Assembly (NCBI GenBank): GCA_016180235.1
Contig: JACPBQ010000004.1
Location: 371,352-435,351 of the forward strand
Reading direction: 5' to 3'
Length of the DNA: 64,000 nt
Source: Candidatus Woesearchaeota archaeon
Lineage (GTDB): Archaea > Nanobdellota > Nanobdellia > Woesearchaeales > GW2011-AR4
The number at the start of each line of letters is the position of its first letter. Position 1 is the stretch's first letter. The position numbers and the translations under genes are program-made. Shown here piece after piece: positions 19,475 to 62,415 of this stretch. Under the pieces are notes generated by a model that worked only from the letters and a program-made list of their open reading frames with translations, did not search any database and was not told where the DNA came from.

Positions 19475-19569
19475 TTTTTTTGAACCAAAATTGTGTTTTT
19501 TAGTTTTTATTATTTTTTCTTATCAAACAAAATTGATGGCAACCTTCATTTTTTGGATGAAGTTTCTTA

Positions 19570-21079: not shown

Positions 21080-21169
21080 ATACTGACGGAGGATATACCA
21101 GATATTTAAATATGTATTGGGTTTCAAATAAAGCGGAATTAAATGGTTTTTTCGTTTTTAAATCTGTTC

Positions 21170-33512: not shown

Positions 33513-34061
33513 ATGAAGAAACCAGTGTGGGCAAACAAATCCAATGGGCAGCTATGCGTGACTATACCCAAAGGCTCAGGGATAAAAGAAGGGGACATAG
33601 TCAATGTGGAAAAGGAGAAAATCAACACTATTGTCTACAGCTCTGTTACAGGCGACATGTTCCACTACGGGCACCTCAGGCTGCTCCAGAAAGCGAATGA
33701 GCTTGGAGATTTTCATATATGCGGGGTTGTTACCGATGAAGCGATAAGATCCTACAAAGAAGAGCCTATAGCAGGCCTAAAAGAAAGAAAAACAATCATC
33801 TCGGACCTCAGATGCGTGGACATGGTCATGGTGCAGGGCAATTTAGACCCGACAGAAAACCTGCAAAAAATACATGCGCAGTTCCCTTATGCAAAAATAA
33901 TCCTTGTATACGGCTCAAACTGGAAAAAGGTGCCTGGGGCAGATTATATGAAGAAAATTAACGGCAAAATAATGCAGCCGGAATTTTACGGGAAATTATC
34001 GACAGAGAACATCATCAGGAAAATCTTCAGAATCTACAGGAATGGAGCTGGCATCAAATGA
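33513..34061 (+). CDS. Cytidylyltransferase (HxGH family) with an N-terminal AbrB/MazE-like domain
   Basis: Residues 1-35 contain GQLCVTIPK..GIKEGD.V.V; then GDMFHYGH, GVVTD and VYGSNW. Confidence 0.8.
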   Translation: MKKPVWANKSNGQLCVTIPKGSGIKEGDIVNVEKEKINTIVYSSVTGDMFHYGHLRLLQKANELGDFHICGVVTDEAIRSYKEEPIAGLKERKTIISDLRCVDMVMVQGNLDPTENLQKIHAQFPYAKIILVYGSNWKKVPGADYMKKINGKIMQPEFYGKLSTENIIRKIFRIYRNGAGIK

Positions 34062-35359
34062 AAAAAGTTTATGTGGGAATGAGCACTGACGTAGTGCATC
34101 ACGGCCATATAAAAATAATAGAGGAAGCGAGAAAGCTTGGCGAAGTGACAGTAGGATTGCTGACAGACAATGCCATTGCGAATTATAAAAGGATTCCGCT
34201 GCTGTCATATGAACAGAGGAAAAAAATAATAGAGAACATAAAAGGAGTAAAAGAAGTGATCCCTCAGGAAACGCTCGATTATGGGCCAAATCTTATAATG
34301 CTAAAACCGGACTATGTAGTCCATGGCACTGACTGGCGCGAAGGCGTGCAGAAAAAGGCGAGGGAAGGAGTTATTGAAACGCTTAAGGGATGGGGAGGCT
34401 TGCTTGTAGAGCCCGAGTACACCAAAGATATTTCTGCAACCCAATTGGCCAATGCAATCAATAAGATAGGGACTACGCCTGAAATCAGGCTGAAAAAACT
34501 GAGGAGACTTTTAGAGCTTAAGCCGATAGTCAGGATTATGGAAGTGCATAACGGCCTTACAGGAAGGATTGTAGAAACGACAAGAATTGCTGAGGAAGGA
34601 AATGTAAAGGAATTCGACGGCATGTGGGAAAGCAGCCTTACCGATTCAACATCAAAAGGAAAGCCGGACATAGAGCTCGTTGATTTTACTTCCAGGCTGC
34701 AGACAATAGACCAGATTTTTGAGGTCACGACCAAGCCCATGATTGTTGACGGCGACACCGGGGGCTTAGTGGAGCATTTTGTCTATACTGTAAAGACGCT
34801 TGAAAGGCTCGGGGTATCTGCAGTCATAATAGAGGACAAGACAGGGCTGAAGAAAAACTCGCTTTTCGGCACCGAAGTAAAACAGGAGCAGGAAGCCATA
34901 GAAAATTTCTCGCATAAAATATCCGAGGGGAAAAAAGCCCAGGTTACGGAAGATTTCATGATAATAGCAAGGATAGAGAGCCTGATACTGAACAAAGGCG
35001 TTGAAGATGCCCTTAAAAGGGCAAGAGCCTATATTGAAGCCGGAGCAGACGGCATAATGATACACAGCAAGGAAAAAGACCCAAAAGAAGTCCTTGATTT
35101 CTGCAGGGAATACTCTAAATTTGAAGACAAAGTGCCCCTGGTGGCTGTTCCCAGCTCATATAATTCCATTACAGAGGACGAATTAGCCAATGCAGGCGTA
35201 AAAATAGTGATATACGCGAATCATCTTTTGAGGAGCGCGTATCCTGCCATGATAAAGGCAGCAGAATCCATATTGAGGAACGGAAGGTGCAAGGAAGCAT
35301 CGGAAGAACACTGCATGCCCATAAATGAAATCCTGAACCTGATTCCGGGAGGCAAATAA
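34058..35359 (+). CDS. aepX: Phosphoenolpyruvate mutase with an N-terminal cytidylyltransferase domain
   Basis: HHGH NTase domain; EVHNGLTG, WESSLTDS, DGDTGG and the PepM signature EDKTGLKKNS. Confidence 0.96.
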   Translation: MKKVYVGMSTDVVHHGHIKIIEEARKLGEVTVGLLTDNAIANYKRIPLLSYEQRKKIIENIKGVKEVIPQETLDYGPNLIMLKPDYVVHGTDWREGVQKKAREGVIETLKGWGGLLVEPEYTKDISATQLANAINKIGTTPEIRLKKLRRLLELKPIVRIMEVHNGLTGRIVETTRIAEEGNVKEFDGMWESSLTDSTSKGKPDIELVDFTSRLQTIDQIFEVTTKPMIVDGDTGGLVEHFVYTVKTLERLGVSAVIIEDKTGLKKNSLFGTEVKQEQEAIENFSHKISEGKKAQVTEDFMIIARIESLILNKGVEDALKRARAYIEAGADGIMIHSKEKDPKEVLDFCREYSKFEDKVPLVAVPSSYNSITEDELANAGVKIVIYANHLLRSAYPAMIKAAESILRNGRCKEASEEHCMPINEILNLIPGGK

Positions 35360-35374
35360 AATCCCTGATCAAAA

Positions 35375-36493
35375 ATGATACCATGCAAGAAATTCTATAA
35401 TGCCCTGATCCGCAACGGAATAGGCTTTTTTACCGGCGTTCCAGACTCTTTGCTGAAAGATTTCTGCGCTTACGTGACTGACAACACTCCAGAGGAAAAA
35501 AACATAATTGCAGCAAATGAGGGCAATGCAGTTGCGCTGGCTTCAGGCTATCATCTCGCAACCGGAAAAGCAGGGTTAGTGTACATGCAGAATTCCGGAT
35601 TTGGAAATACAGTAAATCCTTTAACTTCTTTGGCAGACGAGGAAGTCTATTCCATCCCGATGCTCCTGCTGATCGGATGGAGGGGAGGGCCAACTGCCAA
35701 GGATGAGCCACAGCACAAAAAAATGGGCAAAATCACACTAGAACTTTTGCAGACACTGGAAATACCCTATGAAATACTCGGTGAAAATTACGCAGAAACG
35801 ATAAAAAATGCAGCGGCCCATATGAAAAGCAGAAAATCGCCTTATGCGATTGTTGTCAAAAATGACACATTCGAAAAATATGAATTAAGGAGCAAAAAAG
35901 AGACTAATTACGGGTTAAACAGGGAAGATGCAATAAATCTCATTGTCCCTTTGCTTGACGAGAATGGCATAATTGTATCAACAACCGGAATGACCTCAAG
36001 GGAATTGTTCGAGATAAGGGAAGCAGGCAAGGAAGGCCATGAAAAGGATTTCCTCACAGTGGGATGCATGGGTCATTCCTCATCGATTGCTCTGACACTT
36101 GCAGCGGAAAAGCCCGGAAATGATGTCTATTGCCTTGACGGCGACGGGGCCTTAATAATGCACATGGGAGCTTTGGCTATAATAGGGCAGCTGAAGCCGA
36201 AGAACTTCAAGCACATTGTTTTCAATAATTTTGCCCACGATTCCGTCGGAGGGCAGCCAACCGCAGCCTATAATATCAATATTCCGGCAATTGCGAAAGC
36301 CAACGGCTACACAGACGCATTTTCCGCAGAAACCAGAGAGGATATAATAAGCAAGATAGAAGATATGAAGGAAATGGATGGGCCAGTTTTGCTTGAAATC
36401 AAAGTGAACAAAGGCGCAAGAAAAAACCTTGGAAGGCCTACAACAACGCCAATCCAGAATAAGGAAGCTTTTATGGGGTTTTTGAAAGGATAA
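35375..36493 (+). CDS. aepY: Phosphonopyruvate decarboxylase
   Basis: FTGVPDSLLK, ANEGNAVALASG, YMQNSGFGN.VNP, DEPQH, VG.MGH.SS and LDGDGA. Confidence 0.95.
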   Translation: MIPCKKFYNALIRNGIGFFTGVPDSLLKDFCAYVTDNTPEEKNIIAANEGNAVALASGYHLATGKAGLVYMQNSGFGNTVNPLTSLADEEVYSIPMLLLIGWRGGPTAKDEPQHKKMGKITLELLQTLEIPYEILGENYAETIKNAAAHMKSRKSPYAIVVKNDTFEKYELRSKKETNYGLNREDAINLIVPLLDENGIIVSTTGMTSRELFEIREAGKEGHEKDFLTVGCMGHSSSIALTLAAEKPGNDVYCLDGDGALIMHMGALAIIGQLKPKNFKHIVFNNFAHDSVGGQPTAAYNINIPAIAKANGYTDAFSAETREDIISKIEDMKEMDGPVLLEIKVNKGARKNLGRPTTTPIQNKEAFMGFLKG

Positions 36494-36494
36494 A

Positions 36495-37634
36495 ATGCCG
36501 CAGCAAGAATATTTAGGCTATAATTCGATAGAAAACTTAAGAAATATTTTATCTAAGCACATCCCTAAATCCATTTTTTTAGTTACCCATAAAGATTCTT
36601 ATGAGAGATGCGGGGCAAAATCAATAATAGACAGTTTTCTGAATAGCAGCAATCTAGCCCATTTTAATGATTTTGAGATAAACCCAAAAATAGAAGACAT
36701 TGAAAGAGGAATCAACATTTTTAAAAAGAACAATTGTGATTTTGTAATTGCCGTTGGGGGAGGCAGCGCCATGGACACTGCTAAATCAATAAATCTTTTT
36801 GCCAATAATCCCGGCAATCCAATGGACTATATCCAAAAAAAGCAAATTATAGAAAATAAAGGCAAAACTTTAGCCGCTATACCGACAACTTCCGGTTCCG
36901 GGAGCGAAGCAACGAAGTTTGCAGTCATTTACACTGAAAAAATAAAGCAGTCTTTGGAGCACGAATTCATGCTTCCTGATTACGCAATTGTCGATCCGCA
37001 GTTTACAATGAGCCTGCCAAAGTATGTCACTGCATGCAGCGGCATGGATGCCTTATCGCAAGGTATAGAATCCTATTGGTGTGTCAATTCAAATGAAGAA
37101 TCAAAAAAATACGCAAAAGAGGCAATCAAGCTCGTAATTAAAAATCTTTCTGCTGCTGTAAACAATCCCTCTAAAGAGTCAAGGGAGGCAATGTCAAAAG
37201 CAGCTCATTTGGCAGGAAAAGCCATCAATATATCAAAAACAACAGCCTGCCACGCAGTCTCTTACCCAATCACCTCTTATTTCAATCTTCCCCATGGGCA
37301 TGCAGTGGCATTGACCTTGCCATCAATGCTGATATATAACTCTAAAGTCGATGAAAACAGCTTATTGGACAAAAGAGGCATAATTTATGTCAAAAAAACC
37401 ATTAATGAAATCATAAAATTCATTGATGCTAAAAGTGCTGATGATGCGGGCAAAAAATTGCAAAATTTGATGATTGGCATAGGATTAAGCACTCAACTGG
37501 GCCAATTAGGAATAAAAACCGAAGACGATGTCAAATTGATAATCCAGCGGGGCTTTAACCCGCAAAGGGTCAACAATAACCCAAGAAGATTAACTGAAGA
37601 GGCTTTGAAAGAAATTCTGGAAAAAATAAGATGA
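36495..37634 (+). CDS. Phosphonoacetaldehyde reductase (iron-containing alcohol dehydrogenase)
   Basis: AVGGGSAMD.AK, PTTSGSGSEAT, DALSQ.IES and HAVSY...HGH; directly after aepY. Confidence 0.88.
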   Translation: MPQQEYLGYNSIENLRNILSKHIPKSIFLVTHKDSYERCGAKSIIDSFLNSSNLAHFNDFEINPKIEDIERGINIFKKNNCDFVIAVGGGSAMDTAKSINLFANNPGNPMDYIQKKQIIENKGKTLAAIPTTSGSGSEATKFAVIYTEKIKQSLEHEFMLPDYAIVDPQFTMSLPKYVTACSGMDALSQGIESYWCVNSNEESKKYAKEAIKLVIKNLSAAVNNPSKESREAMSKAAHLAGKAINISKTTACHAVSYPITSYFNLPHGHAVALTLPSMLIYNSKVDENSLLDKRGIIYVKKTINEIIKFIDAKSADDAGKKLQNLMIGIGLSTQLGQLGIKTEDDVKLIIQRGFNPQRVNNNPRRLTEEALKEILEKIR

Positions 37635-38344
37635 AAGCAATGCTGCTAAATTCAGGAGTAGGTAACAGACTTAGGCCATTTACAGATAGCAATCCAAAAT
37701 GCCTAATAAAAATCAATCATGACACCATCCTTGAGCACGAAATAAAAAACCTTTTGCATTACGGAATCAGGGATATAATAATAACAACCGGATTTTTCGA
37801 GGAAAAAATCAAGGATTTAATAAAAAACAAATTTCCTGAAGCAAACGTAAAATATGCAAAGAGCGACAAGCCGGACACAACAAATGCCATTTACTCCATG
37901 TGGCTGGCAAGGTACTTGGCGGATGACGACATATTGCTGATGCATGGCGACATGATTTTTGATAAAGAGCTGCTTGGAAGGCTCCTAAAATCAAAGCATC
38001 CCAGCTGCGCTTTAGTCAACAACAAAATAGAATTGCCGGAAAAAGACTTTAAGGCCAGGATAAACGGAGGCACTGTCATGGAAATAGGAGTGGATGTTTT
38101 CGGCAAAGATGCATTTTTCCTTGCTCCGGTTTACAGGATATCAAAAAAAGATTTTAGGCTATGGATGGAAGAAATAAGCAAATTCATAAAGAGGAAAGAT
38201 GTCACGGTATATGCGGAAAACGCCTTTAACAATATTTCCTCAAAACTCAAGCTTTATCCTGTTTATTACCAGGATGAATTCTGCATGGAAATAGACAATT
38301 TTGATGATTTACAGAAGGCAAGGAAGTTTTTTAGGCGAAAATAG
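37631..38344 (+). CDS. LicC/PntC-like NTP transferase (phosphonate cytidylyltransferase candidate)
   Basis: NSGVGNRL.P....PKCL, TNAIYS, MHGDMIFD and MEIDNFDDL. Confidence 0.85.
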   Translation: MKAMLLNSGVGNRLRPFTDSNPKCLIKINHDTILEHEIKNLLHYGIRDIIITTGFFEEKIKDLIKNKFPEANVKYAKSDKPDTTNAIYSMWLARYLADDDILLMHGDMIFDKELLGRLLKSKHPSCALVNNKIELPEKDFKARINGGTVMEIGVDVFGKDAFFLAPVYRISKKDFRLWMEEISKFIKRKDVTVYAENAFNNISSKLKLYPVYYQDEFCMEIDNFDDLQKARKFFRRK

Positions 38345-48380: not shown

Positions 48381-49265
48381 ATGGAAAAAAGCAGGCAGGC
48401 AAGAAGCTTGAAAGAAAGGATAAAAAAGTATGTCCCATTCCTGGCGCAAATCCAAATTTATAAGCTTGTCAAAAAAACAAGGTTTTTGAGGCATAAAATA
48501 TCCAGCAAGATTCTGGGTAAGGAAGACATAAAAAAAGCCTTTAGGCAGGCCGGCCTGAAAAAAAATGACATCGTTGTTGTGCATTCTTCTCTTGGCAGGA
48601 TCGGGCATGTAAAGAACGGGGCTGATGCTGTTATAGATGCTTTCCTGGAGATAATAGGCAAAAATGGGCTGCTTATCATGCCGGCTTTTTCCGCATTGAA
48701 CTATGATAAAAAAAGAAAAATGCATGTTTTTGATGTGAAAAAGACCCCAACTTATACCGGTGCAATCCCTGAGACTTTCAGAAAACGGGAAAATGTAAAA
48801 AGAAGCATATCCCCTACGCATTCCTACTGCGCTTTTGGCAGGAGAGCATCTGAATTTGTGAGAAACCATGAGAACTGCGACAACCCTTTTGCCATGAACG
48901 GCCCTTTTGGGAAGATTTACCGCTGGAATGCAAAAATTTTCCTCATCGGGGTTGATCAGCTCGCAAATACCCCTTTGCATATTGTAGAGGACAAGACGGA
49001 GTTCCCTGTCAAAGTCTTTACTGACAAATTCAAAGTTCTAGTCATAGATGATGGAAAAGAGAAAATAGTAAAGGCAAGAAAGCACCTGGACAGCCTGAGA
49101 AGGCATCGTGACCCCAACATACTGGAAAAATACTGCATGAGCTATGGGGTGATGAAAATACACAGGCTCGGAAGCACAGAACTTAGGATCCTAAATGCAA
49201 AGGATTTTGTCCATATGATGGAGGAGCTTGTCAGGAAAAACATAACAATATACCACGCAAAATGA
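48381..49265 (+). CDS. Aminoglycoside N3-acetyltransferase-family protein (AAC(3)/YokD/FrbF-like)
   Basis: VVHSSL, LIMPAFS, TGAIPETFR, RS..PTHS, IFLIGV and NT.LH.VE. Confidence 0.85.
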   Translation: MEKSRQARSLKERIKKYVPFLAQIQIYKLVKKTRFLRHKISSKILGKEDIKKAFRQAGLKKNDIVVVHSSLGRIGHVKNGADAVIDAFLEIIGKNGLLIMPAFSALNYDKKRKMHVFDVKKTPTYTGAIPETFRKRENVKRSISPTHSYCAFGRRASEFVRNHENCDNPFAMNGPFGKIYRWNAKIFLIGVDQLANTPLHIVEDKTEFPVKVFTDKFKVLVIDDGKEKIVKARKHLDSLRRHRDPNILEKYCMSYGVMKIHRLGSTELRILNAKDFVHMMEELVRKNITIYHAK

Positions 49266-50324: not shown

Positions 50325-51491
50325 TCAAATAATCTTCATATGCATTCCCGGGTTTGCTTCCAGCAATAATGCATCAATGAAAAATTTTGCTGCCCAGTTC
50401 GGGAAGCAAAATGGAGCGTACCATCCATAAATAGGAAAGGCTCCCGGAATTCCGCCTCTTATAGCCTTGTTCGAGGATGACAAGTTCTGCACCTTTTTCA
50501 TATAATTGTTGCTCTTTTTTGCCGCATCGATGAACCTTTCATCCTTTGTTTCTATGAATAATTTCTGCCATATTATTGACATCTGGGAATTTCCTGTGAG
50601 GCAGGACCATTTCACGCTGCTTTTCCAGTCCTTATCGAAGCTGCCCGGAAGAGAGCCATCATTTCTTTGCCTGCCTGCCAATGCCAAGGCAGCTTTTTCG
50701 GCAGCTTTTACATACGCTGTTTTTTTCAGGTAAAGCCCCGATTCCAAGATGCCCCTTATTGAATATGCAATCGTATGGACTAAAGGCTCCTGGCCGGGGT
50801 AGAATCCGTTATTCTGAAACCAGCCGTTTTCCTGCTGCTGCGTCAAAGCCCAAACTATATTTTTTTCAGCGGCTTTCTTATAAGAGCCTTTTTTGCTTAT
50901 CTTATGCGCCAGAAGAATGGCCCATGCAGTCCTGGAATTATATGTATGCATATGGCCCAGGTATTCATTTTTTCTCCAGCACCCGTCCTTGTCCATGACA
51001 GACAACAGCCAGTCTGCCGCTTTGACGGCTGCTTCCCTGTATTTTTTGCTTTTAGTCTCTTCGTAAGCCCTGCATAAACCAAAAATCACCTGGCCTGTGT
51101 TGAAGACTATCGGAGTGTCTTTTTTTCCCGCTCCGGGGAATGCTCCGGAAGAAAGCTGGAAATTCAATTCAAAATCTGCCATCTCAACAGCCTTTTGCCT
51201 GTAAACAGGATTTTTTGAGAAATGCGCATAATTAAAGAAAGTGGGTATGATATATCCTGTGGTTTCCACATAGGAATAAGACCATCCATCAAACAGGGAA
51301 TAAAGCGCGCTTACGCCTCCATCATTGTTCTGCTCCTGGGCATAAGACAGCCAATCCATTGCAGCTTTCATATGGGTTTCATTCGGATATGTCTTATTAT
51401 AGAGCTTAAAATAATCTTTTATAGATAAGGATGAAATCTGATAAAATTTTCCCGGATTAAGCCCTTTAATGATGTAATTTATGTATCTCAT
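50325..51491 (-). CDS. (alpha/alpha)6-barrel protein, prenyltransferase/squalene-oxidase-repeat-like, function unknown
   Basis: Repeated A.DWL...Q..DG motifs; ETTGYIIPT, FNTGQ, HTYN, HTIAY, CLTG and KFFIDAL. Confidence 0.6.
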   Translation of the reverse strand: MRYINYIIKGLNPGKFYQISSLSIKDYFKLYNKTYPNETHMKAAMDWLSYAQEQNNDGGVSALYSLFDGWSYSYVETTGYIIPTFFNYAHFSKNPVYRQKAVEMADFELNFQLSSGAFPGAGKKDTPIVFNTGQVIFGLCRAYEETKSKKYREAAVKAADWLLSVMDKDGCWRKNEYLGHMHTYNSRTAWAILLAHKISKKGSYKKAAEKNIVWALTQQQENGWFQNNGFYPGQEPLVHTIAYSIRGILESGLYLKKTAYVKAAEKAALALAGRQRNDGSLPGSFDKDWKSSVKWSCLTGNSQMSIIWQKLFIETKDERFIDAAKKSNNYMKKVQNLSSSNKAIRGGIPGAFPIYGWYAPFCFPNWAAKFFIDALLLEANPGMHMKII

Positions 51492-51513
51492 TCTTAATCA
51501 TCCCTAATCATCC

Positions 51514-52314
51514 TCAATAGTCATAAAATCCTTTTCCTGTTTTCCTGCCAAGCCTGTTTTGCCTTATCAAATCTGACAATATTGGAGACGGCTTGTATTT
51601 GTAGTCATTCAGCTGCTTAAAGAGGCTGTTAAGGATATCAAATGCAACATCAATCCCGACAAGATCCAGGATTGTTATAGGGCCAAGGGGATGGTTTGCA
51701 GTCAGCATCATGCTCCTGTCGACATCTTCTTTTGTTGCAATGCCTTTATAGACCGTGTTTGCAGCTTCATTTAGCATCGCGAACATTATCCTGTTGAACA
51801 GAAAACCGGGCTCATCCTTTACTAAAACCGGCTCTTTGCCTATTTGCCTGGCAAGGCTCAGAATGGCGCTTTTTGTTTCCCTGCTTGTTTCCGGCAGCAT
51901 CGGGATTTCAACAACTTTCATAAGCGTTGCAGGATTTGAAAGATGGAATCCTATTATATTCTTTTTGTGCTTGCAATTCGCTGCAATCACGTGCAACGGG
52001 ATAGTTGAAGAGTTTGAGGCAATGATTGCATGATCTGACGCTACCCTGTCAAGATTTTCAAATACTTCCTGCTTTATAGCCCTGTCTTCCTTAACTGATT
52101 CAATGAGCAGATCGCATTCCGACAAACTGGCATAGCTGCCTTCTATCTTTAATCTGCCAGCCATTTTCTTATCATAGAACAGCTTGCGGCAGTGGTCTTT
52201 CGCATCTTTCTTCCTTGAAACCATCATTACATAAAAGCCCCTGCTCAGGAAAAGCTCCGCTGTCTGGCAGCCCATTGTACCGCATCCTACTATGCCAATT
52301 TTCCTGATTCCCAT
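51514..52314 (-). CDS. 3-hydroxyacyl(butyryl)-CoA dehydrogenase
   Basis: GIVGCGTMG, ESVKED, ASNSST, GFH..NP, PGF.FNR, HPLGP and GRKTGKGFYDY; start 31 nt from a TATA. Confidence 0.9.
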   Translation of the reverse strand: MGIRKIGIVGCGTMGCQTAELFLSRGFYVMMVSRKKDAKDHCRKLFYDKKMAGRLKIEGSYASLSECDLLIESVKEDRAIKQEVFENLDRVASDHAIIASNSSTIPLHVIAANCKHKKNIIGFHLSNPATLMKVVEIPMLPETSRETKSAILSLARQIGKEPVLVKDEPGFLFNRIMFAMLNEAANTVYKGIATKEDVDRSMMLTANHPLGPITILDLVGIDVAFDILNSLFKQLNDYKYKPSPILSDLIRQNRLGRKTGKGFYDY

Positions 52315-52511
52315 ACTTGCATGGTTTTTAACCAGCTTTAAAAAGCTTTTCACAGAGTAAATATCATAAATTCCTGACGATATACCATGAATGAAAACAT
52401 GGATATGCAAATAGTTAACTTTAAATAGTAACCAAAAAATTCAAATAAAAATATTAATGCCATAAAATTAATTACAAACAGCAAAAATAAATAAAACTGG
52501 GTTTAATATAA

Positions 52512-54199: not shown

Positions 54200-54748
54200 A
54201 TGGAATTAAAAAAACTGAACCTGGGCTGCGGAAAAGATATAAAAAAAGGATACATCAATCTCGACCAGTCAAAACTGGAAGGTGTTGATGTAGCGTATGA
54301 CCTTAACAAATTCCCATGGCCATTCCCAAAGAACTATTTTGACGAGATATATGCGAGGGATGCCATAGAGCATTTAAAAGACATATTCAAAGTCATGAGG
54401 GAAATAAACAGGATCTCAAAACCCGGAGCAACTGTAAAGCTAATTGTCCCTTACTGGCACTCTTCCGCAGCTTTTTACCCCAATCATTACTATTTCTTCA
54501 ATGTTGACAGCCTGAAGCTGTTCACAGAAAAAGGCAGAAGCTATGACAACCATTACGGCTTCAAGCTTGAAAAAATAAAGCTGATACCTTCCAGGATAGG
54601 CTGGCTCATACCGCCAATACCATTGCCGAAGTCCATTTTTAAGAATGTCATAGACTTAAGGCATCTTTTCAGCTATATTTTCGGGGAAATAATAGTAAAA
54701 ATCGAATTCACCCTGAAGGCAGTTAAAGATAAGTATGCTAGACAATAA
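54200..54748 (+). CDS. Class I SAM-dependent methyltransferase-like protein
   Basis: KLNLGCG, DLNKFPWPF..NYFDEI....IEH and ISKPGA...IVP. Confidence 0.8.
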   Translation: MELKKLNLGCGKDIKKGYINLDQSKLEGVDVAYDLNKFPWPFPKNYFDEIYARDAIEHLKDIFKVMREINRISKPGATVKLIVPYWHSSAAFYPNHYYFFNVDSLKLFTEKGRSYDNHYGFKLEKIKLIPSRIGWLIPPIPLPKSIFKNVIDLRHLFSYIFGEIIVKIEFTLKAVKDKYARQ

Positions 54749-55715
54749 AGGGCTTTTTTAAGAGGTATTTTTCACTGAAGATTTTTAGTATGTAACTATC
54801 ATCAGCTTTTCTCAGCCTTTGGACTTCCCTCCTCTTCTTCAATACCAGCCTAAAATTAAGAATTATCCAGAAAATTGCCTTTAGCCTGGCAAACGCATTC
54901 CCGAACTTTAATTTGGCTAAATCCCTCAGAATTGAAGCTGCTCTCATCAAAGCAACGTAAGGCAGCATGGGCAAAATTGTTTTTATCTCAAATATCCTGA
55001 AAAAAGTCATCAAAAGATTTCTTTCCAGCAAAAAAACTGATTTTGATTGGGCCTCCCATTTTTTTGTGGTGAAGGCGTGCATGTGGTAATTTATAGCTCC
55101 ATTAACCATTACAACTTTCATCCCAAGCATGCGTATCCTCAACCCAAGATCCAGATCCTCGGCATAAATAAAATAATCAGGATCAAATAAATAGCCAAAT
55201 TTGCCTATGACAGATTTTCTTATAAATCCCCCTCCCATATATGGTATTTCTGTTATTTTTTTGTTTTTATCCCTGGCATAATGGCCGCAATACATTGACC
55301 TTGAGACCCATGTGCCTCCTGAAATCACCTTGGGGTCAAAATAATTAACAGAAACATAAGTTGTCATTGCAATGCTGCTGTCTTTTTCCAAAACATCTAT
55401 GAACTTTTTAAAGCAGCCTTTATGCAGTATAAGGTCGTTATTCGCGAAATAGACATATTTCCCATTGCAATACCGCAATGCAGAATTTATTCCGACATAC
55501 CCAAGATTTTTTTTATTAGCGACTATTTTTACATTCGGATATGCTTTCTTGACGAAATCCACGCTTCCGTCGCTTGAGGCATTATCAACAAGAATGCTGT
55601 TTATCTTATCCTTGGGGTAGTCAATCTTTGAAAGCGAAGCAAGGAAATTATCCAAAACTTCCTTTCCATTGTAATTAACGACTATTACGTCAACAAAAGG
55701 GAATTTTCCGCTCAT
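54738..55715 (-). CDS. GT2 glycosyltransferase (WbbL/rhamnosyltransferase-like)
   Basis: VIVVNYNG, VDNASSDGS, NLGY, NND, YAEDLDLGLR and YH. Confidence 0.9.
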   Translation of the reverse strand: MSGKFPFVDVIVVNYNGKEVLDNFLASLSKIDYPKDKINSILVDNASSDGSVDFVKKAYPNVKIVANKKNLGYVGINSALRYCNGKYVYFANNDLILHKGCFKKFIDVLEKDSSIAMTTYVSVNYFDPKVISGGTWVSRSMYCGHYARDKNKKITEIPYMGGGFIRKSVIGKFGYLFDPDYFIYAEDLDLGLRIRMLGMKVVMVNGAINYHMHAFTTKKWEAQSKSVFLLERNLLMTFFRIFEIKTILPMLPYVALMRAASILRDLAKLKFGNAFARLKAIFWIILNFRLVLKKRREVQRLRKADDSYILKIFSEKYLLKKPFIV

Positions 55716-55723
55716 TATATCTC

Positions 55724-56677
55724 TTAATCTTTCTTTAATATATATTTTTTGTAGAGGTCTTTCATATGCATAAGCCAGCTATGGTTCGGCATTGCATAAA
55801 ACCCGCTTACTTCCATGCCATCCTCTATCGAGCTTATCAAAACAGAATTCAGCAGCACTTTGCAGTCATTTCCCACATCAACATGGTCTTTTATTGTACA
55901 GCCCAATCCTACCCATACCCTTTTTCCCAACTTGCAGCTTCCTCCAAGGCAGGTCATCCCGCAAATCCTGGTATCTTCGCCTATAGCGCAATTATGGCTT
56001 ATGTAGACAAGGTTGTCTATCTTAGCATTGTCATCTATCCTTGTCCACGCAAAGCTTGCCCTGTCAATAACAGCATTGCTCCCAATCTCAACATTATTGC
56101 CAATTCTAACCCCGCCAATGTTTATAAGCCTTGCAGCCTTGTTTTCCCTGTCCATAACAGTGCTGAAGCCTTCTCCGCCTATAACAACGCCGGAATCTAT
56201 AGTGCATTTGTTTCCAATAGAAACCTTGTCATAAATGCTCACATTCGAGCTTATAATCGTGCTGTCGCCAACCGAAACATGGCTTCCAATGACAGTATTT
56301 GGCAGTATCCTGACATTATTTCCTATCCTGACATTATTTCCAAACCTCACTGTGCTGTCGATACTGCAGCCTTTCCCAACAACCGGCTTTTCATTACCTG
56401 TATTGAAGGGCCTGAAATCCTTATGAAGGGCATTATGATATTCAATAAAAGCCAAATGAGGGTCGTCTACGATTATGTACTTGTTTCCCCTTATACCCTT
56501 GATTTTTTCATAGATATCCTTTGAGGTTAAGACAATGACACCCTGGCCATCCTTCAAGAATTTCTTATATTCAATATACTTTATGAAGCTTACTTTATTT
56601 TTTTCAATGTTCTCAAGACTACAAGTGCCGTCATTATCCGGTATGCTGTATTTTTTTTGGACAGTTTTTGGATCCAT
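55724..56677 (-). CDS. LpxD-like N-acyltransferase (left-handed beta-helix)
   Basis: IVDDPH, long hexapeptide run, VIGGEGF, GGVRIGNNVEIG.N.VIDR and KIDNLVYISHN (LpxD KIDNLVQIAHN, His retained). Confidence 0.82.
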   Translation of the reverse strand: MDPKTVQKKYSIPDNDGTCSLENIEKNKVSFIKYIEYKKFLKDGQGVIVLTSKDIYEKIKGIRGNKYIIVDDPHLAFIEYHNALHKDFRPFNTGNEKPVVGKGCSIDSTVRFGNNVRIGNNVRILPNTVIGSHVSVGDSTIISSNVSIYDKVSIGNKCTIDSGVVIGGEGFSTVMDRENKAARLINIGGVRIGNNVEIGSNAVIDRASFAWTRIDDNAKIDNLVYISHNCAIGEDTRICGMTCLGGSCKLGKRVWVGLGCTIKDHVDVGNDCKVLLNSVLISSIEDGMEVSGFYAMPNHSWLMHMKDLYKKYILKKD

Positions 56678-56686: not shown

Positions 56687-57304
56687 TTATTCTACCCACC
56701 TAAGTATCTCAAATGCTTCAGCATATTCTTCATTTGCCGAATGGCCGCGTATTTTTGCGACGCTTTTTAGCATCTCCGGGCTCCTCATTGCCCTTACCTC
56801 TGATTTATAGCATGAGTATGCCTTTAACTTGCGATTCATGTCAACCGGGACAAAATAATTCAGCTTGAGGGGAAAAGGGTTCCAAATGGACTGATGGAAT
56901 GTCTCAAATATCAACACTTTTTTCACAAAGAAATTTGTGTCATGCGGCCTTAAAGCAACCAGCGCAGCATTATAAACAGCCCTGTGGTCCTGGTTGTAAT
57001 CTGGGCAGGGTATGAAAACGCGCTCCGGCCTGAGCTTGTTTATGAGCTTTTCAAAAATAGGGATCAATTCCTGCGCTTTGTAGGAATTTACCTTGCTTTC
57101 CCTGTTATAATCCCATTTTATGCCAAGGAATGATGCTGCCGCTTCCAGCTCCTTTAATCTTTGGTTTACAGGCAGCTGGCCTGCGGCCATATTGCTCTCG
57201 TCAACCCCGCAATAATACACAAATGAATCCTCATTTAATACGCTGACACAACCCAAAGCTTCATCATCAGCGTGCGGCGAAAAAACCAAATTTTTGCATG
57301 TCAT
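56687..57304 (-). CDS. PIG-L/LmbE-family de-N-acetylase
   Basis: SPHADDEALG (HxDD), QDH, and K..A...Y.SE ... AEAF. Confidence 0.88.
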   Translation of the reverse strand: MTCKNLVFSPHADDEALGCVSVLNEDSFVYYCGVDESNMAAGQLPVNQRLKELEAAASFLGIKWDYNRESKVNSYKAQELIPIFEKLINKLRPERVFIPCPDYNQDHRAVYNAALVALRPHDTNFFVKKVLIFETFHQSIWNPFPLKLNYFVPVDMNRKLKAYSCYKSEVRAMRSPEMLKSVAKIRGHSANEEYAEAFEILRWVE

Positions 57305-57405
57305 AATGACTCATCTAATCAAGTGGTTTCAATAGTGATTATTTAAACTTTTTTATACGGTAACGAAAGCAAATATTATAAAAAGGCCCAGATTAACGCC
57401 TGCCT

Positions 57406-57741
57406 ATGATAACGGGAATTGGTGTTGATATAGAATCTGTTAACCGGTTTAAAGGCCTGTGCAAAGACAAGCATTTTCTCAGCCTCGTATTCACAAAGCG
57501 CGAGAGGGACTATTGCCAAAGAATGAAAGAGCCCCATATAAGCTATGCCGGCAAATTTTGCGCCAAGGAAGCTGTAATGAAAGCAAATTCAAAAAAACTG
57601 GATATCAAAGACATTGAAATCATCAATGCTTCAAATGATAAGCCAGAAGCCTACATCAAAAGAAAAAAGATGAAAAGCGTACACTGCAGCATCTCGCACA
57701 CTAAAACCCATGTGATTGCCTTTGCAGTGATTGAAAAATAA
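57406..57741 (+). CDS. acpS: Holo-ACP synthase (4'-phosphopantetheinyl transferase)
   Basis: GIGVDIE...RF, FT.RE..YC, AGKFCAKEA and SISH....AFA. Confidence 0.92.
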   Translation: MITGIGVDIESVNRFKGLCKDKHFLSLVFTKRERDYCQRMKEPHISYAGKFCAKEAVMKANSKKLDIKDIEIINASNDKPEAYIKRKKMKSVHCSISHTKTHVIAFAVIEK

Positions 57742-57746
57742 GCTAA

Positions 57747-58895
57747 TCATTCTTCCAGCTTTTTCTTCATCTCGTTCAAAAAATCAGCGACATATTTGCC
57801 GTTGCACACCCTATGATCGAAGGCTACAGTGAGATTGAGCTTTTTGCCGTAAGCAGCCTTTCCATCCTCATGCACTGCAGAATCATATTCTGCACCTATG
57901 CCAAGGATTGCAGACTGCCATGCATTAACAATAGGCTCAAACTGGAGTATCCCATGAGACGAAAAATCGCTGATTGTAAAAGTCCCATCCTGCAGATCCC
58001 CCACATGGATCTCTTTTTTGATCAACTGCAGCAGCAACTCCTTTATTTTTGCTGAAAATTTATCGAGCTGCAACCTGTCCGCATTATGTATTACCGGGAC
58101 AAAAAGATCTGTACCGATATTCATGGCATAGCCTATATTCACATCCTTGTACCTGCAGATAAAGCCATTTTCATAATAAGAATTCAATAAGGGATATTTT
58201 AACAAGGCCCTGGCTGCATTATAGGATATGTATTCTCCAAGGCTCAGCATTATCCTTTTTTCTTTTGCATATTCCTCGACTTTTTGCAATAGCTTCCTTG
58301 TTGAAACTGATACTGTCAGGGACGACTGCAGGTATTCTTTGCTGTGGCTGAGGTACTCAATCTCGGTTTTTTTGATGTTATTTACTGCTATCCTCTCGAC
58401 ATTTCCACGCCGGGACTTTTGAACATTCTGAATATATTCCTTTACATCATCTTCCTTGATAATTTTACCGCTGCCTGCAAATGCATCTGACAAGTCAATG
58501 CTATGCTCCCTGGCCAGCTTCTTTGCCGAAGGGGTCGCTTTGATTTCATAATTAAACTCATTTTGCCCTCTTGCGGCAGCCTGCTCTGACGGCATTGCTG
58601 TTTTTGAGGTGCCTGCTTTTGAGCTATGTTTTCTATGCAGCTGCGGAATCTTGTCGCCTTTCTGCCCAATATAACCGACTTCGTCAAGAACATTGGCATC
58701 TTCGCCCTCCCTGCAATTCAGCGCCAAGATTTTCCCATCCCCATCCGCTTCAATCACAAAGGTGGCTTTATATGTCTCAATTTCAAATATAGGATCGCCT
58801 TTCTTTACATTGTCACCTTCCTTAAAATTCAATTTACCTATCTTAACCTCTTCAATATTTGCACCCATCTTCGGTATGAATATTACTGTTCCCAT
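57747..58895 (-). CDS. Dihydrolipoamide acyltransferase (E2)-like protein: lipoyl, PSBD and catalytic domains
   Basis: EIETYKA lipoyl-Lys, ATPSAKKLARE...I.EDDV (PSBD), GTFTIS and AFDHRVCNG. Confidence 0.88.
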   Translation of the reverse strand: MGTVIFIPKMGANIEEVKIGKLNFKEGDNVKKGDPIFEIETYKATFVIEADGDGKILALNCREGEDANVLDEVGYIGQKGDKIPQLHRKHSSKAGTSKTAMPSEQAAARGQNEFNYEIKATPSAKKLAREHSIDLSDAFAGSGKIIKEDDVKEYIQNVQKSRRGNVERIAVNNIKKTEIEYLSHSKEYLQSSLTVSVSTRKLLQKVEEYAKEKRIMLSLGEYISYNAARALLKYPLLNSYYENGFICRYKDVNIGYAMNIGTDLFVPVIHNADRLQLDKFSAKIKELLLQLIKKEIHVGDLQDGTFTISDFSSHGILQFEPIVNAWQSAILGIGAEYDSAVHEDGKAAYGKKLNLTVAFDHRVCNGKYVADFLNEMKKKLEE

Positions 58896-58904
58896 TTTTA
58901 TCGC

Positions 58905-59879
58905 TCATTCATTGATTATGCTCCATGCTTCTTTCTCTATCCTTTCCGCAGTCGGAAGCACTTTCCTCTCAAGATCAGGAGCAGATGGAATGGGGACATC
59001 CATGGTGCATACCCTTCTTATAGCCGAGTCCAGCGAGTAAAAGCACTCCTCATTTATCCTTGCAATAATCTCTGCACTTATACCACATTCTGAATACCCT
59101 TCTTCCACGACAAGGACTTTCCCAATCCGCTTAACAGAAGACTTGATTGTCTGCATGTCAAGGGGCTTAATGGTCCGCAGGTCTATAATCTCAATTGAAA
59201 TCCCTTTTTTTTCGAAAGCTTCCGCAACATCCAGGCAGTCCTTAACGCTCTTGCTGTATGTTATAATCAGGAGATCCTTCCCTTGCCTTATGACTTCTGC
59301 CTTTCCCAGCGGGATAAACTCCGGATATCCTTTTTCCTCCTCTTCAATAGCATAAAGGTTCTTATTTTCAATAAAAATCACGGGATTTTTATCCTCTATC
59401 GACGCTTTCAGCAGCCCCTTCACATCAGAATTCCTGTAAGGCGCGACAATTTTTATGCCCGGGATGTGCATAAGCGGGGCGATTATGCTCTTTGAATGTG
59501 TTGCCCCATAGCCCCTTCCGGCGCCGGCAGCAACACGGATAACCAACGGAACATTTACTTCTCCGTGCGTAAGATAACAAAAAATGCTCGCATGGTTAAA
59601 AAGCTGGTCGTAGGCCAATGTCATGAAGTCCATGAACATGATTTCTACAATCGGCTTGAGGCCATTAATTGCTGCCCCAATGCCTAGGCCGACTATTGCC
59701 TGCTCAGACATTGGCGTGTCAATGATCCTTTTTGGGCCATACTTCTCCAACAGGCCCCTGGTCGCGCCAAAACAGCCACCATATTTACCTATATCCTCGC
59801 CAATTATAAAGACCGATGGGTCTTTCTCCAAAGACTCATCAAGAGCTTCTTTTATCAGCTGGGCGTAGTTCTTTTTCAT
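58905..59879 (-). CDS. 2-oxoacid dehydrogenase E1 beta subunit-like
   Basis: GEDIG.YGG.FG, DTPMSE, EIMFMDF, HSKS and EIIDLRTIKPLD. Confidence 0.93.
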   Translation of the reverse strand: MKKNYAQLIKEALDESLEKDPSVFIIGEDIGKYGGCFGATRGLLEKYGPKRIIDTPMSEQAIVGLGIGAAINGLKPIVEIMFMDFMTLAYDQLFNHASIFCYLTHGEVNVPLVIRVAAGAGRGYGATHSKSIIAPLMHIPGIKIVAPYRNSDVKGLLKASIEDKNPVIFIENKNLYAIEEEEKGYPEFIPLGKAEVIRQGKDLLIITYSKSVKDCLDVAEAFEKKGISIEIIDLRTIKPLDMQTIKSSVKRIGKVLVVEEGYSECGISAEIIARINEECFYSLDSAIRRVCTMDVPIPSAPDLERKVLPTAERIEKEAWSIINE

Positions 59880-59880
59880 C

Positions 59881-60825
59881 TTAATCCTTGTATATATTTG
59901 CGCTTACCTCAAAATCTTCACGTTCAGAATTGCGGCTTATAATCTCTTCTGAGAGTGAATCCAATTTTTCCCTGATTTTTCCCTTAATCTTCTGGATTCC
60001 TTCCCCGGTTATTTTTTTTGACACCAACAGCTCTTTTTCGAGGCATGCAAGCGCGTCCTTTTCCATCCAAAATTTTTCCTCTTCTTTATCCCTATACAGA
60101 TTCTGGTCATTCTTTGAGTGGCCGCAGTGCCTGTAGGTCTTCACCTCAATAAAAAACGGCTGTGGTTTTTTGCGTATTTGGGATATAAATTCCTTCGCAA
60201 CAGAATCAAGCTTCCTAAAATCATTCTCATCGACCAGCTCACATTGAATATTGTAGGCCTTTACCTTGCCAATAATCTCGCTGCTATGGCCGACACTTGT
60301 GGGAGTAGACATCGCGTAATGGTTATTTTCACAAACAAAAAGAACAGGCAGATCCATAACCGAGGCAAGATTCAGTGACTCAGAGACGTAGCCTTCATTG
60401 AAACCCCCATCACCAAGGAATGCCACAACAACATTATTGCTGTTCTTGTACTTATTTGCAAACGCAAGGCCGTTTGCAATAGGTATCATTCCCCCGCTAA
60501 CCCCGTTTGCAATAAAGTTCTGCTTTATGGAGCTGACATGCTGGGAGCCCCCCATGCCATGATTATAGCCGGCAGATTTGCCCATAAGTTCAGCCAAAAA
60601 TTTTTTTATATCCAGCCTCTTTGAGATTGCATGTCCATGGCCCCTATGTGTGCTAGTTACAAAATCCTCATCTGTCAAATACTGGGAAATTATTGCAGGA
60701 ATAAACTCCTGGCCTATGCAGAAATGGGCTGTTCCCCCAACCAAGCCGCGCTTAAACAGTTCGCTCAGCTTGTTTTCAAATTCCCTGATGAAGCAGATTT
60801 CCTCGTATATTTTTAAATCGTCCAT
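59881..60825 (-). CDS. 2-oxoacid dehydrogenase E1 alpha subunit-like (TPP)
   Basis: HFCIGQE, STHRGHGH, the GDG...ENN TPP motif and TYRHCGHS. Confidence 0.93.
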   Translation of the reverse strand: MDDLKIYEEICFIREFENKLSELFKRGLVGGTAHFCIGQEFIPAIISQYLTDEDFVTSTHRGHGHAISKRLDIKKFLAELMGKSAGYNHGMGGSQHVSSIKQNFIANGVSGGMIPIANGLAFANKYKNSNNVVVAFLGDGGFNEGYVSESLNLASVMDLPVLFVCENNHYAMSTPTSVGHSSEIIGKVKAYNIQCELVDENDFRKLDSVAKEFISQIRKKPQPFFIEVKTYRHCGHSKNDQNLYRDKEEEKFWMEKDALACLEKELLVSKKITGEGIQKIKGKIREKLDSLSEEIISRNSEREDFEVSANIYKD

Positions 60826-60845
60826 GCCTTAGCAAACGAAAAAAC

Positions 60846-60854
60846 ATTTAAATA
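60846..60854. promoter_or_regulatory. Shared palindromic TATA between E1alpha (-) and ACP (+)
   Basis: atttaaat(a) lies in a 51-bp gap, about 27-30 nt from both start codons. Confidence 0.55.
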
Positions 60855-60876
60855 GGTTTCCTTTTTCTTCAAAGGC

Positions 60877-61107
60877 ATGCAGACGAAGAAACCAAGCAAG
60901 GACGAGCTGATTGTATTTTTTTCAGAATTCTGGAAAATAGACCAGGATGAAGTCACGGATAAACTTGAGCTAAACAGCAAATCACTTCCCGGGTTTGATT
61001 CTCTACGGCTGTTCCAGTTCTTTGCAGCAGTTGAATTCAAATTCAAAGTAAAAATCAAGAAACTGAACAGCATCCGCACTTTCGGCGAACTCTTCAATAA
61101 TATCTGA
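60877..61107 (+). CDS. Acyl carrier protein
   Basis: 76 aa with FDSL (phosphopantetheine Ser) followed by ...VE.KF.V.I....IRTFGEL. Confidence 0.82.
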   Translation: MQTKKPSKDELIVFFSEFWKIDQDEVTDKLELNSKSLPGFDSLRLFQFFAAVEFKFKVKIKKLNSIRTFGELFNNI

Positions 61108-61149: not shown

Positions 61150-62415
61150 TCATCTTTGGCCTATGCCCCTGTATGCAATACCAATCTTTTTTATCTTTTC
61201 CTTGTTAAGGCAATTCCTTCCGTCAATTACTATCTTGATATTGTTCTCCTTTAATTTTCCGATATCTATATTCCTAAACATAGAGTGGTCCGCAGCCAGA
61301 ATTATATACTCCACTTTTCCGAGCAGCGTGCTTAATTCCTTTACATCGCTTTTTTCCCTGATGTAGGGGTCAAAAACCAGAACTTCTGCCTGTTTCTCTT
61401 TTAGCACTTCTATAACTTTAAGCGCAGGGCTTTCCCTCATGTCATCAACATCTGCCTTGTATGCGAGCCCTAAAACACCGACCTTTGCCCCTTTTATGCC
61501 TTTTTTCAGCTTTTTCAGCTCTTCTTCCAGCAATTGCACCGTGTAGTGAGGCATATTATTGTTTATTTCCCTTGCCAAGCTCAAAAACCTGTGGTTAAAT
61601 CCTATCTGCTTTGCCTTTTCTATCAGGTAATAAGGGTCAACCGGGATGCAGTGGCCACCTACTCCAACGCCGGGGTAATGTGCCATGAACGCAAACGGCT
61701 TTGTAGAAGCCCCTTTGATGATCTCAAGAATATCAATCCCTGCCTTGTCGAAGCTCATGGCCATCTCATTTATGAATGCAATGTTCACATCCCTAAAAGT
61801 ATTTTCCATGATTTTTGCGGCTTCCGCAGCCTTTGCGCTGCTCAGTTTCGTTATATCCGCATCAATAATTTTCTTATAGAATTCATAGGCTTTTTCCGTC
61901 GATTTTTTGTCGATTCCCGCGACTACCCTTGGAAGGTTTTTTACTGTCCACTTTTTATTTCCAGGGACTATCCTTTCAGGGCAGTGGGCAAGATAAAAGA
62001 CAACATCGGACTTTTTCAGTATTGGCAGCACTATTTCTTCCGTTGTTCCCGGGTAAATGGTCGATTCTATAACCACCAGGGTATTTTCTTTAAGATGCCC
62101 GGATATCGATATGCATGCATCCTTTAACGGCTTTAAATCAGGAAGATGCCTGTCATCCACGGGAGTAGGGACGCATACAATAACAACCGAAGAATTTTTT
62201 ATTGCCTGAAAATTATCAGCAGCCTTTATTTTTCCCTTTGACTTTCTCACTTCCTCTATCAAATCGGGATCGTTGATGGGGCTAATTCCTTTGTTAATCT
62301 GATCTACCTTATTTTTGTTTATGTCTATGCCATAAACATCCATGCCTTTTTCAGCGCATAAGCATGCCAACGGCAGCCCTACATAACCCAGCCCAACTAT
62401 AGTTACTGATGCCAT
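61150..62415 (-). CDS. wecC: UDP-N-acetylhexosamine 6-dehydrogenase (WecC/WbpA family)
   Basis: GLGYVGLP, VIESTIYPGTT, CPERI.PG, KIMEN.FRDVNIA, GVGGHCIPVDP and YKADVDD.RESP. Confidence 0.93.
   Translation of the reverse strand: MASVTIVGLGYVGLPLACLCAEKGMDVYGIDINKNKVDQINKGISPINDPDLIEEVRKSKGKIKAADNFQAIKNSSVVIVCVPTPVDDRHLPDLKPLKDACISISGHLKENTLVVIESTIYPGTTEEIVLPILKKSDVVFYLAHCPERIVPGNKKWTVKNLPRVVAGIDKKSTEKAYEFYKKIIDADITKLSSAKAAEAAKIMENTFRDVNIAFINEMAMSFDKAGIDILEIIKGASTKPFAFMAHYPGVGVGGHCIPVDPYYLIEKAKQIGFNHRFLSLAREINNNMPHYTVQLLEEELKKLKKGIKGAKVGVLGLAYKADVDDMRESPALKVIEVLKEKQAEVLVFDPYIREKSDVKELSTLLGKVEYIILAADHSMFRNIDIGKLKENNIKIVIDGRNCLNKEKIKKIGIAYRGIGQR

Follow-up and report, generated by a model that had tools for sequence, protein, structure and literature searches.

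A carrier protein, AcpS and a lipoyl-type enzyme complex form a conserved cassette in a glycan cluster of a DPANN archaeon

Within a 64,000-nucleotide stretch of a Candidatus Woesearchaeota genome (GCA_016180235.1, contig JACPBQ010000004.1, C9:371352-435351; hereafter the window), we identified a five-gene cassette that encodes a small acyl carrier protein (ACP), an AcpS-type 4'-phosphopantetheinyl transferase (PPTase) and, between them, three subunits (E1alpha, E1beta and E2) of a lipoyl-dependent, dehydrogenase-like complex. We consider it fairly probable that this cassette (ACP, E1alpha-E1beta-E2, AcpS) supplies a short acyl group for surface-glycan decoration by the full mechanism set out below. 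Both ACP and AcpS typify lipid synthesis in bacteria, and nearly all archaea are said to lack them. A first-pass annotation of this DNA had described a horizontally acquired carrier system used for glycan tailoring. Its glycan setting is supported by the cluster in the window and by the glycan loci of relatives, but it took ACP and AcpS for a self-contained pair and overlooked E1alpha, E1beta and E2, their partners and probable loader. The assembly (1.04 Mb) is 81% complete, with ~19% of the genome absent, and the genome-wide searches reported here refer to it. Window genes were assigned to families with Pfam and NCBIfam.

The ACP gene (60877-61107, plus strand) encodes 76 residues with no match to the Pfam PP-binding family PF00550; its sole library match is the ACP model NF002150 (21.2 bits, E = 2.5e-4), whose curated cut-off of 66 is not reached. 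A word-indexed homologue search returned one relative; it took an exhaustive HMMER scan, covering 1.84 billion representatives, to recover 16 proteins at E<=1e-3, a number that marks a rare family. Ser42, the predicted phosphopantetheine attachment site (in GFDSLRLF), is invariant in a 14-row family alignment, inside (D/N/S)-S-(L/I)-(R/K). When the family profile was compared with the PDB, all 38 sequences at E<=1 were ACPs (best 4.9e-6), with Ser42 falling on the DSL serine. In an AlphaFold model (pLDDT 88.8), helix II (residues 42-56) begins at Ser42, and the top 50 Foldseek matches to this model are all ACPs (TM 0.64-0.78). Because Ser42 is invariant, the profile matches only ACPs and the predicted fold is that of an ACP, we take the FDSL carrier protein claimed in the first-pass annotation to be a genuine but divergent ACP with a rare family of its own. 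No other carrier was detected in the genome, and a search with a 5-row ACP-family alignment returned one genome locus and two metagenome loci. A 94-residue antisense open reading frame (ORF; 60813-61097, minus strand) covers the ACP gene almost from end to end; it matches no family and is presumably spurious.

AcpS (57406-57741, plus strand) is a single-domain protein of 111 residues, within the family range of about 110-125. It scores 59.7 bits against PF01648 (cut-off 25) and 69.6 against TIGR00556 (cut-off 45.35), and is just under the cut-off of the holo-ACP synthase equivalog TIGR00516 (55.9 versus 59.8). An alignment with Bacillus subtilis AcpS (1F7L) spans its full length and shows that GIGVDI, AKEAxxKA and SISHT are kept, with GIGVDI and AKEAVMKA opposite GIGLDI and AKEAFSKA of the Bacillus enzyme. 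We take the Mg- and CoA-binding residues of the latter to be Asp8, Glu58 and Lys62 in its own numbering. The archaeal enzyme is intact, with its metal- and CoA-binding motifs kept, and the scores bear out its earlier assignment as an AcpS-type PPTase. We found 61 relatives in a large protein set; those that carry names come from Woesearchaeota, Nanoarchaeota, Micrarchaeota and Pacearchaeota. Each context that we read is a glycan cluster, in which AcpS has a carrier protein for a neighbour, together with a set of proteins that load or modify acyl groups (FkbH, MaoC dehydratase, short-chain dehydrogenase/reductase (SDR), MBOAT or left-handed beta-helix (LbH) transferase).

The first-pass annotation reported neither Fab nor ketosynthase (KS) genes in the window, which is correct, and we likewise detected no KS and no FabD genome-wide. 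Since the genome has neither, use of the carrier in type II fatty-acid or polyketide synthesis is excluded as far as the assembly goes. About 200 kb from the cassette, a cluster at C9:226847-235178 encodes a FabZ-like protein (105.7 bits, cut-off 113), two thiolase-like ORFs, a zinc-ribbon/DUF362-like protein, a crotonase, E3 and a FabG-like SDR (291.5, cut-off 297.75). The FabZ-like, FabG-like, thiolase and crotonase genes fit a CoA-based archaeal route (PMC3533463). One of the thiolase-like ORFs is a 204-residue N-terminal copy that has a near-identical 43-residue stretch in common with the other, of 319 residues.

Three genes on the minus strand separate ACP from AcpS. E1alpha (59881-60825), the thiamine diphosphate (ThDP)-binding subunit, resembles those of pyruvate dehydrogenase (PDH) and acetoin dehydrogenase (PF00676, 200 bits) and scores 270.6 against TIGR03182, whose equivalog cut-off of 393.85 it does not reach. 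E1beta (58905-59879; PF02779, PF02780) passes the subfamily model NF006667 (353.9, cut-off 321). E2 (57747-58895) has, by Pfam and NCBIfam, a lipoyl domain, a peripheral-subunit-binding domain (PSBD) and a catalytic acyltransferase domain; it keeps the lipoyl Lys (ETYKAT), the PSBD, the His of DHR and the Ser of TFTIS, and does not reach the cut-off of TIGR01349 (173.7 versus 445). A bona fide E3 (dihydrolipoyl dehydrogenase; TIGR01350, 567 bits) is encoded at C9:231752-233173, unlinked to the cassette. As the cassette E2 is the sole E2 in the genome, it is the only one that this E3 could serve.

The association of carrier and E1 genes recurs in at least seven loci, in rearranged orders and at GC contents from 27 to 46%, and the related loci that we read are all glycan clusters. 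One locus that is 88% identical (L008) has the order of the window and open frames. In L019, on a contig (GC 46%) of a metagenome-assembled genome labelled Methanosarcinales, E1alpha is followed by ACP-AcpS and then E2-E1beta, a short form without E3-LplA-LipA. Longer forms are found in G122, a genome of the same class with a GC content of 27% (locus L022: ACP, then E1alpha-E1beta-E3-LplA(C)-LplA-LipA-E2, with AcpS on another contig beside an LbH transferase), in L026 (MBOAT-ACP, E1alpha-E1beta-E3-LplA-LipA-E2, AcpS) and in L030 (ACP, the same six-gene operon, AcpS). The same operon adjoins AcpS in L027, where no carrier was seen, and in L028 a different, PP-binding-type carrier occupies the ACP slot. 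Since the linkage is conserved across differing gene orders, we conclude that E1alpha, E1beta and E2 are partners of ACP and AcpS, not bystanders. In an E1alpha tree the cassette sequences form a clade of 34 rows with a support of 100 and a long stem, next to other archaeal-labelled sequences, and all its sampled members adjoin carriers and/or AcpS.

We surveyed 301 genomes of the class. Some E2 is encoded in 40, mostly 30-35% identical to that of the window, whereas the window type of AcpS is found in 8 and the ACP family in 2 (G000 and G122), which are also the two with a closely related E2. This rarity agrees with a published account in which both are rare in archaea and gained by transfer (PMC3533463). 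The patchy distribution fits accessory, laterally moving genes, and from rarity and patchiness we infer a bacterial origin of the carrier system. The horizontal acquisition proposed in the first-pass annotation is thus upheld in part; direct import from bacteria is not supported. Because the E1alpha clade sits beside other archaeal-labelled sequences, the cassette looks, on the tree, like an established DPANN element rather than a fresh import.

Several loci have further proteins beside this ACP family. Proteins of ~200 residues that consist of an E2 core adjoin the same ACP family, AcpS and an LbH transferase in three loci (L006:10336-10965, L015:2192-2764 and L021:7668-8285). We considered them as acyl-CoA:ACP transacylases and find that role doubtful, the catalytic His being replaced by Phe, Ser or Ala; they may be scaffolds or pseudo-enzymes. 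A Cys-rich zinc-ribbon-like protein (CxxC...CxxC, ending in GW), with a weak Mut7-C match, is encoded directly upstream of the ACP-family gene at L030:7756-7929, L015:3152-3295, L021:6270-6482 and L019:214-585 (as the C-terminus); it has no counterpart in the window.

We scanned 458 ATG-started ORFs with at least 45 bp of free upstream DNA for TTTAWATA-like octamers with at most one mismatch. These octamers form a single sharp peak starting at -30 from the ATG (57 sites, versus ~4 at background positions), as expected of archaeal TATA promoters that give rise to leaderless mRNAs. The first-pass annotation had placed a TATA box about 30 nt before each of the ACP and AcpS genes, and this was confirmed with a position weight matrix (PWM) built from the genome's own -30 sites. 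The ACP gene has TTTAAATA exactly at -30 (60847-60854; PWM 15.4, 92nd percentile of promoters), and AcpS has the weaker ATTATAAA at -31 (57375-57382, plus strand; PWM 8.0, 59th percentile of promoters and 95th of control positions). The ACP and E1alpha genes are divergent, with a 51-bp spacer, and E1alpha scores 7.5 at -27 on the reverse reading of TTTAAATA. Neither E1beta nor E2 has a separate promoter. Since the near-palindromic box scores on both strands, one TATA element is common to the ACP gene and the E1alpha-E1beta-E2 operon. The two genes had been described as "rewired" to archaeal signals; these are simply the genome's normal promoters. A search for archaeal small-subunit ribosomal RNA gave no match, the rRNA not being in the assembly, and we used TATA-binding protein (TBP) as the archaeal marker instead; a two-repeat TBP gene is on the same contig as the cassette. 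Given this gene and the genome-wide TATA peak at -30, the contig is archaeal, as had been claimed, not bacterial, and the genome is of the DPANN type. The names on the relatives listed above agree with a DPANN/Woesearchaeota identity.

The cassette is set in a large glycan cluster. Divergent from AcpS, a run of three minus-strand genes encodes a PIG-L/LmbE-family de-N-acetylase (56687-57304; PF02585, 41 bits), an LpxD-like protein of 317 residues (55724-56677, 730 bp from AcpS) and, last, a GT2 glycosyltransferase (54738-55715; Pfam). LpxD enzymes draw their acyl group from acyl-ACP. Complexes of LpxD with ACP are represented in the PDB (4IHF-4IHH). The LpxD-like protein passes the cut-off of the LpxD subfamily model NF002060 (248 versus 207) and does not reach that of the equivalog TIGR01853 (235.6 versus 242.5). 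Only LpxD structures match it in the PDB (118 bits), the similarity is full-length and includes the N-terminal uridine-binding domain, and the catalytic His is kept (ISHNCAIG opposite IAHNVQIG). We found no LpxA, LpxC, LpxB or other lipid A genes among the window genes scanned, and made no genome-wide search for them. On the other side of the cassette, convergent with the ACP gene, is a gene for a WecC/WbpA-like nucleoside diphosphate (NDP)-sugar 6-dehydrogenase (61150-62415, minus strand; TIGR03026, 430.7 bits), whose position is kept in L008. Elsewhere small LbH transferases or MBOATs stand in the place of the LpxD-like gene, and small LbH acyltransferases adjoin AcpS or the carrier in L012, L015, L019, L021 and L023.

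We propose that AcpS would convert apo-ACP to holo-ACP at Ser42, while the ThDP enzyme E1alpha/beta would cleave a central metabolite (candidates are 2-oxoacids, pyruvate among them, and alpha-hydroxyketones, for instance a ketose phosphate) and reductively acylate the lipoyl arm of E2. The catalytic domain of E2 would then hand the acyl group on, not to CoA as in the classical complex but to the thiol of the phosphopantetheine arm on holo-ACP, and E3, encoded elsewhere, would re-oxidise the lipoyl arm. In parallel, the PIG-L enzyme would strip the N-acetyl group from a UDP-HexNAc(A)-type sugar, the LpxD-like enzyme would put the ACP-bound acyl group on the freed amine, and the neighbouring GT2 would use the product. 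We infer the lipoyl-to-ACP direction, the sugar substrate and the acyl group from the composition of the locus and from known systems. The acyl group is probably a C2 unit, glycolyl or acetyl. Glycolyl is suggested by analogy with the QncN/L/M and SclQ1-4 systems of Streptomyces, compared below, and would explain chemically why one N-acyl group is exchanged for another; acetyl would be in keeping with a PDH-like E1.

Several observations weigh against this proposal. Were the acyl group acetyl, nothing would be gained by taking it off a nitrogen and putting it back on. The LpxD-like gene is found in none of the seven other AcpS-bearing genomes (G122 and six more), and the LpxD-like step is for this reason specific to the present locus; the gene as a regular companion of AcpS is rejected on the same count. 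The E2-core-only proteins of L006, L015 and L021 have DFR, DSR or DAR in place of DHR and so lack the catalytic His, suggesting that ACP and the E2 core may in some cases be linked for reasons other than catalysis. The likeness to the Streptomyces systems is one of composition. The chief weakness for function in this genome is lipoylation: relatives carry LplA and LipA inside the E1/E2 operon, whereas here we found no LplA (PF21948) match, and tblastn with in-clade LplA and LipA returned nothing. A PF03099 match was rejected as a lipoate ligase, since NCBIfam identifies it as BirA and it stands beside a biotin carboxylase. Finally, the cassette E1/E2 is the genome's sole 2-oxoacid dehydrogenase set, and among solved structures E1alpha is most like PDH E1alpha, the nearest being human; E1/E2 could also act as the cell's pyruvate dehydrogenase, or be nothing more than that.

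The best-surviving alternative builds on this last point. E1/E2 and the distant E3 would form a housekeeping PDH that makes acetyl-CoA, ACP and AcpS would serve the LpxD-like transferase through some other loading route, and their adjacency would be due to chance or co-regulation. The uniqueness of the cassette E2 and the structural affinity of E1alpha suit such a role, as does the position of E3 next to genes whose products would use acetyl-CoA (thiolase, crotonase, FabZ-like and FabG-like), and studies of DPANN archaea routinely take such genes as PDH (PMC10936187). We nevertheless consider it unlikely. Chance adjacency sits poorly with a linkage found in at least seven rearranged loci, and with an ACP family confined to this E2 lineage when any E2 at all is found in 40 of the 301 genomes; the ACP and E1alpha genes have a TATA box in common, and no other acyl-ACP loader (acyl-ACP synthetase, FabD or FkbH) is encoded nearby. 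The PDH equivalog cut-offs for E1alpha and E2 are also missed.

A less probable alternative is that the cassette in this genome is a decaying remnant, from whose operon E3, LplA and LipA were deleted, leaving an E2 that is not lipoylatable and an idle carrier. The gap between E1beta and E2 is 9 bp at the point where relatives hold E3-LplA-LipA, the lipoyl motif reads ETYKAT in place of TDKAT, and LplA and LipA were not detected. Against decay, all five ORFs are intact with their catalytic residues kept, the promoters are strong, L019 has the same short form and the frames are open in L008; the missing lipoylation genes may also be judged in light of the ~19% of the genome that is absent from the assembly.

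We think it very improbable that ACP and AcpS exist for lipoylating E2, in which case an octanoyltransferase would draw on octanoyl-ACP, as it does in bacteria and mitochondria. Outside fatty-acid synthesis, the classic task of ACP is to support lipoylation (PMC9307952), and an LplA-family gene and LipA lie within the operon of relatives. LplA and LipA, however, require no ACP, the genome has no KS or FabD for making octanoyl-ACP and no detected LplA/LipB/LipM-family gene or LipA, and the same ACP family adjoins E2-core-only proteins without a lipoyl domain. Equally remote is a partly ACP-dependent fatty-acid route in which ACP serves the FabZ-like, FabG-like and thiolase genes of the contig: such genes are present (C9:226-235 kb) and DPANN metagenome-assembled genomes with FabG/FabI/FabZ are on record (PMC10936187), but they lie ~200 kb away without KS or FabD, the ACP family is never beside Fab genes in the loci that we read, and for their archaeal homologues CoA esters are the presumed substrates (PMC3533463).

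The cassette as a supplier of acyl groups to glycans has a possible wider counterpart. In L029 (Woesearchaeota, GCA_964582035.1) LipA-E3-LplA-E1alpha-E1beta genes are followed by one for a 372-residue protein (L029:9940-11058) that combines a lipoyl domain, an E3/E1-binding domain (PSBD), PglD_N and hexapeptide repeats, and then by DegT and WbpB-like genes. From its domains this protein looks like an E2 whose catalytic core was swapped for a PglD-type sugar N-acyltransferase. In L031 (L031:1345-3948), inside a glycan cluster, E1alpha-E1beta are followed by a free 76-residue lipoyl protein, and divergent from E1alpha is a gene for a 97-residue protein with a carrier-like GGLNSL motif. The E1alpha sequences of L029 and L031 (P0184 and P0135) come from branches of the tree that neighbour the cassette clade, and these designs tie the wider enzyme group to glycan acylation, the L029 fusion directly to N-acylation of sugars. 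We raise, as a tentative idea that we hold short of probable, that the "pyruvate dehydrogenase" genes annotated in many DPANN archaea stand outside central metabolism and instead encode a family of complexes that supply acyl groups to surface glycans by way of the lipoyl arm, with little dependence on acyl-CoA. Their output may take three modes: from lipoyl-E2 to a private ACP and on to LpxD-like/LbH or MBOAT transferases (window, L019, L022, L026 and L030); through a lipoyl and PSBD module fused to a PglD-type sugar N-acyltransferase (L029); or through a free lipoyl protein with a carrier-like partner (L031).

Other parts of the window add to the picture of its glycan genes. At 18380-21127, genes for a WbpE-like DegT aminotransferase, a small LbH acetyltransferase and a WbpB-like GFO/IDH/MocA oxidoreductase adjoin. 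A WbpB/WbpD/WbpE-like trio is the usual set for UDP-2,3-diacetamido-2,3-dideoxy-uronic acids. The window also has a UDP-GlcNAc 2-epimerase and two NDP-sugar pathway sets, and its genes thus appear to include those for sugars of the UDP-diacetamido-uronic-acid type. Directly after the 2-epimerase gene is one for an aminoglycoside 3-N-acetyltransferase-family protein (48381-49265; PF02522, 178 bits). A run at 34058-38344 encodes a fused cytidylyltransferase/phosphoenolpyruvate mutase, a phosphonopyruvate-decarboxylase-like ThDP enzyme, an Fe-alcohol dehydrogenase and a nucleotidyltransferase, and looks like an operon for hydroxyethylphosphonate-type decoration. At 50325-52410, in the glycan island, a 3-hydroxybutyryl-CoA-dehydrogenase-like gene (NF004474, 250 bits, under the cut-off) adjoins that of an (alpha/alpha)6-barrel-like protein; no thiolase or hydratase gene is near, and the dehydrogenase-like protein could be a hydroxyacyl decoration editor. 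In the 1.04-Mb genome as a whole, ARAGORN found only 6 tRNA genes, three of them 85-93 nt long, which suggests that most tRNAs here are intron-bearing or split, as in other DPANN archaea.

We found no description of an ACP/E1/E2/AcpS cassette in archaea in the limited literature collection that we searched, and the coupling of a lipoyl complex to a carrier is in print only for a few Streptomyces antibiotic pathways. If our proposal is correct, minimal symbiotic archaea take surface acyl decorations straight from a central metabolite, and an N-acyl swap like that of LpxC/LpxD operates outside lipid A. It would also caution against taking DPANN "PDH" genes as evidence of pyruvate-oxidising metabolism. 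If the more tentative idea on the DPANN "pyruvate dehydrogenase" genes holds as well, it was glycan chemistry and not the making of lipids for which an ACP/AcpS pair came into archaea, and DPANN metabolic reconstructions that count PDH as pyruvate oxidation would need revisiting.

Among known systems, the nearest in composition are QncN/L/M (quinocarcin) and SclQ1-4 with SclP (scleric acid) of Streptomyces, described in PMC6335953 (after Peng et al. 2012) as makers of glycolicacyl-S-ACP, in which a two-carbon unit passes from a ketose phosphate via ThDP and a lipoyl arm to the carrier. By parts list and size the likeness is close: in both cases E1alpha-like, E1beta-like, lipoyl/acyltransferase E2, ACP and PPTase are encoded together, with lengths of 314, 324, 382, 76 and 111 residues here, compared with 305 (SclQ2), 338 (SclQ3), 386 (SclQ4), 76 (SclQ1) and 213 (SclP) in the Scl set. 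As in those systems, we propose that a C2 unit would go from ThDP to the lipoyl arm to ACP, not to CoA. The archaeal cassette differs in its host, in an AcpS-type PPTase of 111 residues rather than the 213-residue SclP, in a carrier from its own rare family, in relatives that carry their own E3, LplA and LipA, and in its putative consumer, which is an LpxD-like sugar N-acyltransferase encoded among glycan genes rather than a non-ribosomal peptide synthetase.

The proposed consumer step parallels LpxC and LpxD of lipid A synthesis, in which a UDP-sugar is de-N-acetylated and then N-acylated from acyl-ACP by an LpxD-fold enzyme. Unlike LpxC, the deacetylase here has the PIG-L/LmbE fold; the host is archaeal, LpxA, LpxB and LpxK are absent from the window, and the acyl group is presumably short, not 3-hydroxymyristoyl. 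With the heterotetrameric pyruvate and acetoin dehydrogenases (E1alpha2beta2-E2-E3), the cassette has in common its domain architecture and its ThDP and lipoyl chemistry, with a true E3 in the genome; it differs from them in its sub-cut-off E1alpha and E2 equivalog scores, its glycan locus, the flanking carrier and AcpS, and the unlinked E3. The Dlt system (DltC-DltB-DltD) offers a further parallel, as in relatives the same carrier adjoins an MBOAT and a DUF1574 protein (L026), or an MBOAT gene lies in the vicinity (L004 and L006). Unlike Dlt, the cassette in the window has no adjoining MBOAT, and its loader would be a lipoyl enzyme, not an adenylating ligase such as DltA; in relatives, the arrangement suggests that the carrier hands its acyl group to the MBOAT for delivery to an extracellular glycan.

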